From: an uncultured candidate division WWE3 bacterium | GTDB taxonomy: Bacteria; Patescibacteriota; WWE3; UBA101185; UBA10185 | DNA: 64,000 nucleotides | Assembly (NCBI GenBank): GCA_903879985.1 | Contig: CAIRNR010000007.1 | Location: 69,382-133,381 of the forward strand | Reading direction: 5' to 3' | In this document: positions 4,607 to 13,114 of the stretch, piece after piece | Numbering within the stretch: the stretch's first letter is position 1 | How the letters are laid out: each line of letters begins with the position of its first letter | Position numbers and translations under genes: made by a program | The notes under the pieces: model-generated | Seen by the model: only the letters and a program-made list of their open reading frames with translations | Database searches by the model: none | Told to the model about the DNA's origin: nothing

Positions 4607-6811
4607 ATGGATACCAAAACAAAAGGAATATCAATTATTGTTCCAACTTGGAATGAAGAAAAGAACATCAAACCTCTAACGGAGAGGATTAGTGCCGCCC
4701 TTACAAAGAATAATATACCTTACGAGGTTATTTTTATCGAGGATAATTCCTCAGATAAAACCAAAGAAGTAATTAAGGCTCTTTCTGCAAAATATCCAAT
4801 ATCTTTATATATGAAGGTCGGTAAAAAAGGCAAAGCACAGTCCTTAATAGAAGGATTCTCCCATGCAAAATACCCGGTGTTATGTATGATTGACGCAGAC
4901 CTTCAATATCCACCTGAAAATATCCCTGCTATGTATAACAAAGTCTGTTATGAGACTGGCACTACCGATATAGTAGTTGGCAATCGTGCGCAGTATCACA
5001 AAGATTTCCTCCGAAAAACGGCAAGCTACGTTTTCCGCACTTTCTTTGGTCAATATCTACATAACTTAAACTGTGATGTTCAATCAGGGTTAAAAGTTTT
5101 CAAAAAAGAAATTGTACAACGAATACGCCTAAACTCCTCCACATGGGACTTTGATTTAGAATTTCTAGTTAGAGCCCGAAATGCCGGTTACAAAATTGAA
5201 TCTATGGATATTGATTTTAATAAGAGAGATCATGGAGAGTCTAAAGTTAATCTATTAAGCGCATCGGCTAACATAGCCTTTTCTGCGCTAAAATTAAAGG
5301 TTAGGAGCCCAGATATAGTCCCATTTTTACCAGAATACGAAGCAACACGCGGTAAAGGTTTCCATTATAGAGGTGTTGAGTTTGTACACCACTCAGACCT
5401 GCATCATTCGGAAAGTGCAATCCACCGATTTTCCACTTCCCAAAAGGTTATGCTACTTACACTGGTATTTATTTTTACAGTGCTTTTGACAGCTAACTGG
5501 CATTTAACCTTAGTAGTATTTATCGCACTATTAACAATCTTGTATTTTGTGGATTTAATGTTCAATTTTTTCCTAATATATAGAAGCTTTTCTAAACCAG
5601 AGGAGATCGTGGTTACTGCCCAGGAGATGTCGAAAATTTCTGAAACAGAGTGGCCAACCTATACAATACTTTGCCCATTGTACAAAGAGTGGCAAGTTTT
5701 ACCTCAACTTGTAACCGCTATGAGCAATTTGGAGTATCCAAAGAATAAACTCCAGATAATGTTATTACTCGAAGAAAAAGATAAAGAAACAATAGCAAAA
5801 GTTGCAGAATATGATTTACCGGATTTTTTTGACGTTGTTGTGGTACCAGACTCTCAACCAAAAACAAAACCAAAAGCATGTAATTACGGCTTACCTAGGG
5901 CAACTGGAGAATATACAGTTATTTACGACGCAGAAGATATACCAGATACAAAACAACTCAAAAAAGCAGTACTTGCCTTTAAGAAAGTTCCAAGTAATGT
6001 TGCATGCATACAATCAAAACTTAACTTTTATAACCCACATCAAAACATTTTAACTAGAGTATTCACAGCAGAGTATTCACTATGGTTTGACCTAATACTT
6101 ACTGGATTACAGTCTATTCATGCACCTATACCTTTAGGAGGAACATCAAACCATTTTAGAACAAAAGACCTCAAAGAACTTAAAGGCTGGGATGCTTTTA
6201 ACGTAACTGAAGATTGTGACTTAGGCATTAGATTAGTAAAAAGAGGTTTAAAAACTGCAATATTAGATTCAACCACACTCGAAGAAGCAAACAGTAATTT
6301 AAGAAACTGGTTCTGGCAACGAACCCGCTGGGTCAAAGGCTATATTCAATCATATTTAGTACATATGCGTAAACCAAAAGAATTCATGCGCGATTGGAAA
6401 GAACCACATGTAGTAACTTTTCAACTTGTCGTAGGAGGAAAAGTATTATCTATGTTTATTAATCCTCTTATGTGGTTGATTACAATTAGTTACTTTGTAT
6501 TTAGAGCACAAATAGGAACTTTTATCGAGCAATTTTACCCAACACCAATTTTATATATGGCAACCTTTTGTATAGTTTTCGGAAACTTCCTGTACGTCTA
6601 TTACTACATGATAGGTTGTGCTAAGCGCGAATATTATGACATTATTAAATACGTATTTTTAGTTCCTTTATATTGGCTGGGAATGAGTATGGCAGCATGG
6701 GTTGCTGTGTATCAGTTTATTAAAGCACCACATTACTGGCAAAAAACTTTGCATGGGTTGCATTTGAATAAGGAGGGAACAGCAATTCCTGCAGCTGTCC
6801 CAACAAAATAA
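4607..6811 (+). CDS. Bifunctional fused glycosyltransferase. The N-terminal GT2 is a polyprenyl-phosphate sugar synthase (GtrB/DPM1-like); it is followed by TM helices and a C-terminal processive-type GT2 with a QxxRW motif.
   Basis: N-terminal domain: IIVPTWNEEKNI...IFIEDNSSDKT...DADLQYPPE. The second domain has DAEDIPD, EDCDLGIR and QRTRWVKG (Q-x-x-R-W). Hydrophobic helices lie between the domains and at the C-terminus. An SD (gaggaa) sits upstream of the ATG at 4607. Confidence 0.75.
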   Translation: MDTKTKGISIIVPTWNEEKNIKPLTERISAALTKNNIPYEVIFIEDNSSDKTKEVIKALSAKYPISLYMKVGKKGKAQSLIEGFSHAKYPVLCMIDADLQYPPENIPAMYNKVCYETGTTDIVVGNRAQYHKDFLRKTASYVFRTFFGQYLHNLNCDVQSGLKVFKKEIVQRIRLNSSTWDFDLEFLVRARNAGYKIESMDIDFNKRDHGESKVNLLSASANIAFSALKLKVRSPDIVPFLPEYEATRGKGFHYRGVEFVHHSDLHHSESAIHRFSTSQKVMLLTLVFIFTVLLTANWHLTLVVFIALLTILYFVDLMFNFFLIYRSFSKPEEIVVTAQEMSKISETEWPTYTILCPLYKEWQVLPQLVTAMSNLEYPKNKLQIMLLLEEKDKETIAKVAEYDLPDFFDVVVVPDSQPKTKPKACNYGLPRATGEYTVIYDAEDIPDTKQLKKAVLAFKKVPSNVACIQSKLNFYNPHQNILTRVFTAEYSLWFDLILTGLQSIHAPIPLGGTSNHFRTKDLKELKGWDAFNVTEDCDLGIRLVKRGLKTAILDSTTLEEANSNLRNWFWQRTRWVKGYIQSYLVHMRKPKEFMRDWKEPHVVTFQLVVGGKVLSMFINPLMWLITISYFVFRAQIGTFIEQFYPTPILYMATFCIVFGNFLYVYYYMIGCAKREYYDIIKYVFLVPLYWLGMSMAAWVAVYQFIKAPHYWQKTLHGLHLNKEGTAIPAAVPTK

Positions 6812-6894
6812 ATCATACTTTTCAAGAGATATTTAAAAAAATAAAACCCAATGAACTACTAGGATTAACTACTATTGGACTAGCGATTGCATTT

Positions 6895-11625: not shown

Positions 11626-13114
11626 ATTTGAAAAATATGTTTGGGTTGGCGCTATATTAGTATCCCTTGTTGCTTGGTACATATCCTTTACCCACGGTTA
11701 CGTTCTTACTTACAACGATGCCGCGTCACATTTGAATATCGCCCGACGTGTTTTCGACAACCTTACACCAGGTTTCGCGCAAATAGGTACCGTATGGCTA
11801 CCACTTCCACACATACTAATGCTTATATTTGCTTGGAATGATTTTTTATGGCATACGGGTTTAGCAGGCAGCATTATATCTATGACATCTTTTGTTGTCG
11901 CCGTTGGTTTTGTTTATAAAACAGTGTTTAAGCTCACAAAAAACCCGTTTGCTGCCACTTTAGGTGCAACCGTAATGATACTTAATCCAAACTTTTTATA
12001 CCTTCAAACAACACCAATGACTGAACCCTTGCTAATTGCTTTAATATCAATAATTGCATATTTAGTTGCATGTTATATAGAAGATCCTAAAGTCGAAACC
12101 ATTGTACTGTTAGGAGCATTTGTATCTGCAGCTACACTTACAAGATATGACGGCTGGTTTATATATTTAACTTTATTGATAACCTTGCCTGTCTGGAATT
12201 TAGTTAATTATGGTAGAGCAAAAGCCGAGGGCGCATTGTTTTTATTTGCACCAATTGGTGGTTTCGGAATATTTTTATGGTTTTTATGGAACTTAGTGAT
12301 ATTTGGTGATCCACTTTATTTCATGACAGGTCCCTATTCTGCATATACACAACAAAGATATTTGCATAGCGTTGGGCAACTACCTACCGAAGGTCATATT
12401 TGGACTTCCATTTTTTATTACGTTTCGTCCGTCATAGATAACAATGGCTTGAGTGTATGTTGTTTAAGTATAGTCGCACTAGCGATTTGCGCTTTTGCAT
12501 TTAAAAAAAGAAAGATAGTACCAATTATATTAATAGCACTCGCTCCACTGGTATTTAATATAATTTCATTGTTCCTGGGACAGTCAGGAATGGACGTACC
12601 ACAGGCTGCAATTAATCCAGGGCTTTTTAACATTCGCTACGGGTTGATAATGTTACCTGCTATTGCTATTTTAGTAGGTTTATTAGCGACGCTACCAAAA
12701 GTTAAATATTTTATTTTAGCTATACTGCTTGTTCAATTAGGATTATTTGTAATGCAAGGTAAACCAATTATCCTTGTAGATGGAATGAATGGTTTAAAAA
12801 GTACAACCTACACTGTTGTCGCAAGTAAATGGATTAAAGAAAATTATCAAGGAGGCTTAATATTAACAAGTCTAGCATCCCACGATGCATTTGTTGCACG
12901 AGCACAACTTCCAATTAGAGATTACGTACATGAAGGTACTAGGGAATACTGGGATCATGCGCTATTTCATCCTTCAGGTAATGTTGAATATATAGCCACT
13001 ATGGTTTATCCTCCAGATCTAGTATACAAGGCAATAAAAGACAACCCAGATTTTATAAAAAATTTTGACCTCGTTTATTCGTATGATACTTTTAATATAT
13101 ACAAGCACAAATGA
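11606..13114 (+). CDS. Paralogous GT-C-like polytopic membrane protein (second copy).
   Basis: ARRVFDNLTPGFAQIGTVWLPLPHILMLIFAWNDFLWHTGLAGS is near-identical in pattern to the 9191..10807 product. The start was chosen at the ATG at 11606, preceded by the SD ggagggg (11597-11603). The ORF-track start at 11564 would overlap the previous gene by 62 nt. Confidence 0.55.
   Translation: MQRPFDRFEKYVWVGAILVSLVAWYISFTHGYVLTYNDAASHLNIARRVFDNLTPGFAQIGTVWLPLPHILMLIFAWNDFLWHTGLAGSIISMTSFVVAVGFVYKTVFKLTKNPFAATLGATVMILNPNFLYLQTTPMTEPLLIALISIIAYLVACYIEDPKVETIVLLGAFVSAATLTRYDGWFIYLTLLITLPVWNLVNYGRAKAEGALFLFAPIGGFGIFLWFLWNLVIFGDPLYFMTGPYSAYTQQRYLHSVGQLPTEGHIWTSIFYYVSSVIDNNGLSVCCLSIVALAICAFAFKKRKIVPIILIALAPLVFNIISLFLGQSGMDVPQAAINPGLFNIRYGLIMLPAIAILVGLLATLPKVKYFILAILLVQLGLFVMQGKPIILVDGMNGLKSTTYTVVASKWIKENYQGGLILTSLASHDAFVARAQLPIRDYVHEGTREYWDHALFHPSGNVEYIATMVYPPDLVYKAIKDNPDFIKNFDLVYSYDTFNIYKHK

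Follow-up and report, generated by a model that had tools for sequence, protein, structure and literature searches.

Seven co-oriented genes at positions 4607-14397 of the + strand form an operon in the window analysed here, a stretch of 64,000 nucleotides from an uncultured candidate division WWE3 bacterium. We consider it fairly probable that this operon is the local version of a Patescibacteria-wide module building a cell-surface glycan, which may be a polysaccharide or a lipoglycan. Reduced or differently fused forms of the module are found in Dormibacteraeota, Chloroflexota and some Actinomycetota. The reading draws on domain identities, folds, conserved catalytic motifs and operon packing in the window, and on synteny and gene fusions across related loci. 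Positions refer to the whole window; related loci are labelled L and their proteins P, and GH428 is shorthand for the 428-amino-acid (aa) product of the last gene.

In the mechanism that we propose, the N-terminal domain of the 734-aa protein would load a sugar onto polyprenyl phosphate at the inner face of the membrane, where the BcsA-like GT2 and two GT4s would make an acceptor glycan or glycolipid. A shortened PF03706 protein is, in this lineage, the candidate flippase for the lipid-linked donor or for the glycolipid acceptor. At the outer face, two paralogous 13-helix GT-C enzymes may add sugar from the flipped polyprenyl-phosphate donor to the glycan, and the secreted clan GH-A enzyme would trim, release or transfer the product. 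What we infer here is the direction in which sugar flows, which protein is the flippase, and that a glycan, not a protein, is the acceptor; the observations are set out below.

The operon and its seven products

4607..6811, + strand: bifunctional membrane GT2, 734 aa; DPM1/GtrB/ArnC-like domain, transmembrane (TM) helices, BcsA-like GT2
6895..8100, + strand: GT4 glycosyltransferase a (GT4a), 401 aa, cytoplasmic GT-B; Glycos_transf_1 5e-46
8097..9188, + strand: GT4 glycosyltransferase b (GT4b), 363 aa from a GTG start; Glycos_transf_1 3e-23
9191..10807, + strand: GT-C paralog 1, 538 aa; first-loop motif YGDSLSRLNISRK at 9296-9334
10870..11625, + strand: shortened PF03706/UPF0104 (MprF-flippase-like) membrane protein, 251 aa, between the two GT-C genes
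11606..13114, + strand: GT-C paralog 2, 502 aa from Met15 of the open reading frame (ORF); first-loop motif YNDAASHLNIARR at 11711-11749
13111..14397, + strand: secreted glycoside hydrolase of predicted clan GH-A membership, 428 aa; first 4 bases shared with the last GT-C gene

A first-pass annotation of this DNA had described six consecutive same-strand genes. All six ORFs sit on the + strand at 4607-13114, as given there, but the operon has seven genes and the one at 13111-14397 had been overlooked. Between 6895 and 14397 the packing is tight and gene ends abut or overlap; GT4b, for which the start annotated on identical contigs is used, shares 4 bases with GT4a. The GC content of the region (0.34-0.37) is the same as that of the remaining window, and the region is therefore not a compositional island.

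The N-terminal GT2 domain of the 734-aa protein (residues 9-171, with a domain extent of about residues 1-230) carries DADLQYPPE at 4892-4918, with DAD at 4892-4900. Its solved relatives are polyprenyl-phosphate GT2s only, the best matches among solved structures being the P. furiosus Dol-P-Man synthase (5mlz, 2e-25), ArnC (1e-16) and GtrB (6e-13). These matches corroborate the GtrB/DPM1-like polyprenyl-phosphate sugar synthase domain proposed in the first-pass annotation. Two TM helices at about residues 275-326 lie between both GT2 domains. The C-terminal GT2 contains YDAED (5924-5938, residue 440), TED (6206-6214, residue 534) and QRTRW (6317-6331, residue 571), so that the D, DxD, TED and QxxRW motifs are all present with BcsA-like spacing; TM helices flank the domain and further ones follow at the C-terminus. 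BcsA is its best solved relative (3e-7), and the earlier description of a processive QxxRW GT2 fused behind the loader is upheld. Both GT4s match Glycos_transf_1, also as described before, and GT4a reaches no NCBIfam equivalog cut-off.

The two polytopic proteins are confidently predicted to adopt the GT-C fold. Paralog 2 has about 13 TM helices followed by a C-terminal alpha/beta domain, and the AlphaFold2 model of the GT-C, built with 43 homologs as input, has a predicted local distance difference test score (pLDDT) of 92.5 and a predicted template modelling score (pTM) of 0.93. Searches of the sequences of solved structures, whether with a single GT-C sequence or with a 43-sequence profile, gave no match, and the fold is therefore established by prediction; the family shares 10-14% identity with solved GT-Cs. 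Paralogs 1 and 2 are 33% identical to each other (E 3e-80), and paralog 1 retains every invariant column of the family alignment (family profile match 8e-164). After the first TM helix stand an invariant single Asp39, in the context Y-N/G-D, and an invariant Arg48. Protein O-mannosyltransferases (PMTs) carry a DE motif in the first luminal loop, and this DE pair is absent here.

The Pfam search of the single proteins gave no match for the 538-aa protein and a PMT_2 match at 21 bits, below the cut-off of 26.1, for the 502-aa protein (516 aa in the first-pass annotation); neither reaches the threshold of the PMT profile (PF02366). Members of the family do match such profiles, with 35 of 43 hitting PMT_2 and 14 of 43 hitting PMT (E<=0.01), while PMT_4TMC is matched by none of the 43. 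The two GT-C-like transferases first proposed are thus retained on the strength of the predicted fold and of the profile matches in the family, but a PMT/GT39 assignment of the two proteins cannot be made.

The order of the three membrane-protein genes is GT-C, PF03706, GT-C, which differs from the order first given. The 251-aa protein scores 32.2 bits (1e-7) against PF03706, whose gathering cut-off is 33.4, and covers profile positions 129-296, the C-terminal half only; TIGR00374 is matched at 2e-6. An exhaustive search returned 295 homologs. The closest full-length one, P0242 (302 aa, 53% identity, E 2e-50), passes PF03706, and in L090 its gene is flanked by GT-C genes of the 538 and the 502 type. 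Compared with P0242, about 35 plus about 10 internal residues (about 45) are missing from the window copy. On identical contigs from other assemblies the 251-aa ORF is uncalled, and its place is taken by two other called ORFs, one of 91 aa in a different frame (11298-11573 in the window) and one of 88 aa on the complementary strand (10947-11213); public annotations of this species probably miss the gene. That the ORF is spurious is ruled out by the clear homologs and by the same position in L090, and the gene is real, with a position conserved in this lineage.

PF03706 homologs were found in none of the 82 other loci compared below, and the protein is therefore not a general component of the module. 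The flippase-like protein of the first-pass annotation is accordingly clear in its homology, but it is shortened, below the gathering cut-off and confined to one lineage. Of the three steps of a lipid-carrier route claimed there, loading would fall to the GtrB/DPM1-like domain and outer-face transfer to the predicted GT-C, and the middle step would fall to a protein lacking from all 82 of these loci. A role in flipping the donor would agree with archaea, where the DPM1-like AglD carries a fused PF03706 domain (PMC5898192). A glycolipid acceptor as the flipped molecule, and with it a lipoglycan resembling the mycobacterial phosphatidylinositol mannosides and lipomannan (PMC3485146), would agree with Pseudomonas and C. 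difficile, where the domain is found together with the glycolipid synthases GpgS (a GT4) and HexS (PMC12713373, PMC10128005).

GH428 consists of a signal peptide, a (beta/alpha)8 barrel, a CarboxypepD_reg beta-sandwich (residues 323-400) and a C-terminal amphipathic helix, and has more than 850 homologs. Its AlphaFold2 model (pLDDT 90) is matched by Foldseek to GH10, GH5, GH157, GH30 and PslG (template modelling score 0.52/0.53), the hydrolase of the Psl exopolysaccharide locus, and the modelled fold places GH428 in clan GH-A. PF11790, the glycosyl hydrolase catalytic core, is matched by 17 of 38 homologs, and the match of GH428 to sequences of solved structures is confined to the beta-sandwich domain. 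An invariant Glu251 ends strand 7 in FGEFG (13855-13869) and is the candidate nucleophile; an invariant His224-Tyr225 follows strand 6 (13774-13785) and an invariant Glu154 follows strand 4. We infer the catalytic roles of Glu251, Glu154 and His224-Tyr225 from position only.

Synteny and fusions of the module in related loci

The window proteins were compared with the six-frame ORFs of 82 related loci, mostly from Patescibacteria. The unit conserved over these loci comprises the DPM1/GtrB-like GT2, the BcsA-like processive GT2, a GT4, the GT-C and the GH-A protein. Of the 72 loci in which the flank was long enough, 53 have a gene for a GH428 homolog on the same strand after the GT-C gene, in 41 of them immediately next to it. 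Where the upstream flank was sufficient (60 loci), the processive GT2 half was present in at least 44 and a GT4a ortholog in at least 47; both are minimum counts, as many genes extend beyond the 10-kb flank. In high-GC phyla the minimal pair is a GT-C gene immediately preceded by that of the processive GT2. More than one GT-C gene occurs in 8/82 loci only, and the GT-C pair of the window is therefore a lineage-specific duplication.

For the GT-C family, more than 3237 homologs were found and, in species-representative genomes, at least 599 matches. The named homologs are mostly from Patescibacteria (Levyibacteriota, Microgenomates, Gottesman-, Ames-, Moranii- and Curtissbacteria), and a few are from Acidimicrobiia, Actinoplanes-type organisms, Chloroflexota and Dormibacteraeota. 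It must be noted that many low-GC contigs, L010, L013 and L016 among them, have a gene content typical of Patescibacteria but are titled, for example, 'uncultured Gammaproteobacteria' or 'Pseudomonadales'; such titles appear to be placeholders or mislabels and are unfit for taxonomy. The module probably ranks among the main surface-glycan pathways of Patescibacteria. The envelope chemistry of these bacteria, also known as the candidate phyla radiation (CPR), is almost unknown, yet the envelope mediates their obligate attachment to host cells.

Gene fusions map the cooperating activities further. GT2-GT2-GT4a is a single ORF in 32 loci, and the GT-C is fused to a GH428-type domain in L071. The same GT-C family is fused to a second kind of clan GH-A domain, GH5 (PF00150 above cut-off), in L035 (9923-12583), L070 (11759-14374) and L077 (9929-12574), and a database search with one such protein found at least 38 protein clusters of GT-C-GH5 fusions. 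The same search returned two Dormibacteraeota proteins of about 1095 aa in which a DPM1-like GT2 is followed by the GT-C and then by GH5; the GT2 of this triple fusion matches the N-terminal GT2 half of the window protein at E 1e-17. The gene of P0433 from Dormibacteraeota (L091 6523-11288), which encodes GT2-GT-C-GH5, stands directly after that of a 488-aa synthase-type GT2, and in Gottesmanbacteria the GT-C-GH5 gene A3D77_04545 adjoins the GH428-type gene A3D77_04550. Since loader GT2, processive GT2, GT4, GT-C and GH-A are thus fused in various combinations across genomes, these five activities are taken as one functional unit. The single-polypeptide versions (GT2-GT2-GT4, GT-C-GH5 and GT2-GT-C-GH5) would also suit expression and assay.

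The route from polyprenyl-phosphate sugar to GT-C is strongly supported by the conserved unit and its fusions. P0433 joins a DPM1-like GT2 to the same GT-C family and backs the donor link on genetic grounds. The fused GH5 domains carry the label GH5_mannosidase, and together with the Dol-P-Man synthase match of the loader and the PMT_2-type matches of the GT-C this hints faintly at a mannose-based polymer.

The related loci also hold a polysaccharide pyruvyl transferase, methyltransferases, nucleotide-sugar enzymes and extra GT2s and GT4s, and such variable cargo is typical of polysaccharide loci. Some larger ORFs near the module were characterised by eye. In L050 (6450-9893) a 1148-aa ORF just upstream of the GT-C appears to have kinase-like, polysaccharide-deacetylase-like and polytopic ArnT-like domains, and secreted proteins encoded after the module in L012 (10641-14069) and L018 (11530-15414) appear to have a glucose/sorbosone-dehydrogenase-type propeller with PKD and repeated PA14-like domains.

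The acceptor and the neighbouring genes

3..4487, + strand: giant surface protein, C-terminal 1494 codons; a neighbour, not a conserved partner
4536..4563, + strand: promoter-like site TTTAAA-16-TGcTACAAT, upstream of the operon in the 119-bp gap that follows the giant gene; candidate only

The first-pass annotation had interpreted the operon as possibly dedicated to O-glycosylation of the giant protein upstream; the GT-C pair would then move sugar from polyprenyl phosphate to Thr/Ser of a Pro/Thr (PT) linker. The ORF is open to the window edge and the full-length protein on another assembly has 2378 aa, with LamG, Ig-like and fn3 domains, the PT linker and then TM helices alternating with CarboxypepD_reg domains. 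The linker (3330-3473) lies about 40 residues before the first TM helix, just outside the membrane, and resembles the Ser/Thr-rich disordered regions glycosylated by streptococcal GtrB with the GT-C PgtC2, or by Pgf (PMC12041528). The giant gene lies on the same strand as the operon at a distance of 119 bp in this species, and the PMT_2 and PMT matches of the GT-C family are also in line with such a function. Across the 82 loci, however, no homolog of the giant protein was found within 10 kb of the module, apart from two weak partial matches to small ORFs. A PT linker comparable to that of the window, in an ORF of 400 aa or more, occurred within 10 kb in 6 of 75 low-GC loci, a density of about one per 224 kb that is no higher than in the window itself, and the large non-GT ORFs near the module are heterogeneous from locus to locus. 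A link of the module to PT-linker proteins is not seen in these neighbourhoods, and the giant protein was rejected as a conserved partner. A dedicated system would furthermore leave the processive synthase, the two GT4s and the GT-C-adjacent or fused hydrolase unexplained.

The promoter-like site in the 119-bp gap also speaks against a joint unit with the giant gene, and no terminator-like site was found in that gap by the promoter and terminator scan. The number of promoter-like sites in the region equals the shuffle expectation, and the scan therefore says little on co-transcription. Taken together, we regard a system dedicated to the giant protein as very improbable, and adjacency to it as a trait of this one species, not of the system. 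The module may still glycosylate the PT linker in trans.

More plausible than a dedicated system, although in our view still unlikely, is a general protein O-glycosylation in which the GT-Cs would modify Ser/Thr/Pro-rich stalks of many surface proteins, the giant protein among them. The streptococcal precedent and the matches of family members to PMT_2 and PMT point in this direction, as does a neighbour found directly after the module in 28-33 of the 82 loci. This secreted protein of about 200 aa combines a Cys-containing domain with a Ser/Thr/Gly-rich linker, an LAxTG sorting signal and, after a TM helix, a basic tail, and a sortase (PF04203, 1.7e-24) comes next. Examples are L031 12907-13503 and L020 4398-5482. 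The window proteins themselves miss the PMT profile cut-off, and with a protein acceptor it is hard to explain why two GH-A families are independently fused or adjacent to the GT-C and why the link to the BcsA-like synthase is constant. A glycan is preferred over a protein as acceptor because of this repeated coupling of the GT-C to two GH-A families and to the synthase. By tblastn, neither the sortase nor the LAxTG protein was found in the window; in the loci that have them, these neighbours hint at a tie between the module and wall anchoring.

A transfer en bloc was also considered, in which the DPM1/AglJ-like GT2 would prime and the GT4s and GT2s extend a lipid-linked oligosaccharide, the PF03706 protein would flip it in the manner of AglD2, and the GT-C would act as an AglB-type oligosaccharyltransferase or ligase. 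The N-terminal GT2 half does match AglJ at 3.5e-21, but with an NCBIfam score of 75.9 against a cut-off of 325, and the C-terminal domain of the GT-C is AglB-like, but no WWDYG-type motif was seen in its sequence. Variable cytoplasmic glycosyltransferases and modifying enzymes between GT2 and GT-C in related loci, and the archaeal fusion of PF03706 to AglD (PMC5898192), would agree with this scheme, whereas the processive QxxRW synthase and the hydrolase remain unaccounted for. We judge it quite unlikely, and less so only than the system dedicated to the giant protein.

Several observations weigh against the surface-glycan reading that we prefer. The GH-A fold of GH428 is no proof of hydrolytic activity, and no member of the GT-C family has a known product, donor sugar or acceptor. 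The LAxTG protein with its Ser/Thr-rich stalk is a possible glycoprotein substrate. Moreover, no phosphoglycosyl transferase, conserved flippase or exporter was found in the neighbourhoods; ABC-type, Wzx and PF03706 proteins are not conserved there. A bolder version of the surface-glycan reading is conceivable but doubtful. It would be an undescribed route to an envelope polysaccharide, with the loader physically coupled to the processive synthase and the GT-C likewise to a GH-A hydrolase or transglycosylase, by which a polymer would be built or branched outside the cell and attached to the wall, as the main surface-glycan pathway of Patescibacteria.

Downstream of the operon the window contains the following genes:

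14423-16246, - strand: MsbA/PglK-like ABC exporter, convergent, directly after the operon; not conserved beside the module elsewhere
16468-16543: tRNA-Thr(CGU)
16529-16915, - strand: PemK-type toxin ORF, annotated on identical contigs
17645-18541, + strand: sugar nucleotidyltransferase
18551-19282, + strand: Ig-like/Glucodextran_B protein
19257-20468, - strand: Wzy_C O-antigen-ligase-like protein
20431-21720, - strand: Wzx-type flippase
21727-22920, - strand: 397-aa protein with a weak GH39 match
22974-24212, + strand: GH18

The genes at 17645-24212 make up a second glycan gene set, 3-10 kb downstream of the operon. Wzy_C proteins include PglL-type protein O-oligosaccharyltransferases, and the Wzy_C protein of the window is therefore another candidate modifier of the PT linker. 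Neither the convergent exporter nor the Wzx and Wzy_C genes of this second set were accepted as partners of the module: ABC-type matches, all weak, were found in 8 of the 82 loci, and Wzx and Wzy_C matches in none.

Comparison with known glycosylation and polysaccharide systems

The nearest likeness is to multi-component ('three-component') transmembrane glycosylation as in GtrA/GtrB/GtrC, CsbB/GtcA/YfhO and GacI/GacL (PMC11127046, PMC7389260), systems that are also the subject of a review cited in PMC13390465. There, too, a GtrB/DPM1-like GT2 makes a polyprenyl-phosphate sugar and a polytopic GT-C at the outer face modifies an envelope glycan. The module differs in several respects. No operon product matches the GtrA family (PF04138) and there is no intergenic room for a further gene, the PF03706-like protein being found instead. 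The loader forms one polypeptide with a BcsA-like processive GT2, usually extended by a GT4; the GT-C adjoins or is fused with a clan GH-A hydrolase, and the GT-C family is distant from the solved ones at the 10-14% identity given above.

The streptococcal GtrB-PgtC2 and Pgf systems (PMC12041528) and the actinobacterial Ppm1-Pmt system (PMC11727336) follow the same donor logic, and they modify Ser/Thr-rich linkers close to the membrane, to which the PT linker of the giant protein is comparable. In contrast, the module is not linked to such proteins across genomes, its GT-Cs cannot be assigned to GT39, and the protein-modifying systems are without its synthase, GT4 and hydrolase partners.

The module also shares its outline with glycan assembly in mycobacteria, in which Ppm1, the GT4s PimA and PimB and the GT-Cs PimE, MptA-C, Aft and Emb take part. 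In that lipoglycan and arabinogalactan assembly, dependent on polyprenyl-phosphomannose and decaprenyl-phosphoarabinose (PMC3485146), a polyprenyl-phosphate sugar synthase, priming by cytoplasmic GT4s and several paralogous GT-Cs extending the glycan outside are combined, much as we propose here. The membrane processive GT2 and the coupled GH-A protein are additions of the module, in which a lipid anchor is hypothetical only.

Synthase-dependent exopolysaccharide systems, such as BcsA/BcsZ and PslG of Psl, have in common with the module a membrane GT2 with D, DxD, TED and QxxRW motifs and an operon-encoded secreted glycoside hydrolase, the barrel and beta-sandwich of GH428 resembling PslG (template modelling score 0.52). 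A PilZ or c-di-GMP module was not seen, nor were outer-membrane parts. To our knowledge, no known synthase-dependent system has GT-C enzymes or a fused polyprenyl-phosphate sugar synthase, and none was found in our literature search.

PF03706 is tied to DPM1-like GT2s or to GT4 glycolipid synthases in the archaeal AglD/AglS final-mannose step and in GpgF/HexF (PMC5898192, PMC12713373, PMC10128005), as it is in this operon. For GpgF/HexF and the AglD-type domains the flipping of a lipid-linked product is predicted and flippase activity is unproven, and the window copy differs from them in being shortened and restricted to one lineage. A full-text literature search found no description of the module or of the GT-C-GH5 fusions, although its coverage was incomplete and absence is thus unproven. 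Seen against these systems, the module is an uncharacterised, widespread variant of multi-component transmembrane glycosylation.

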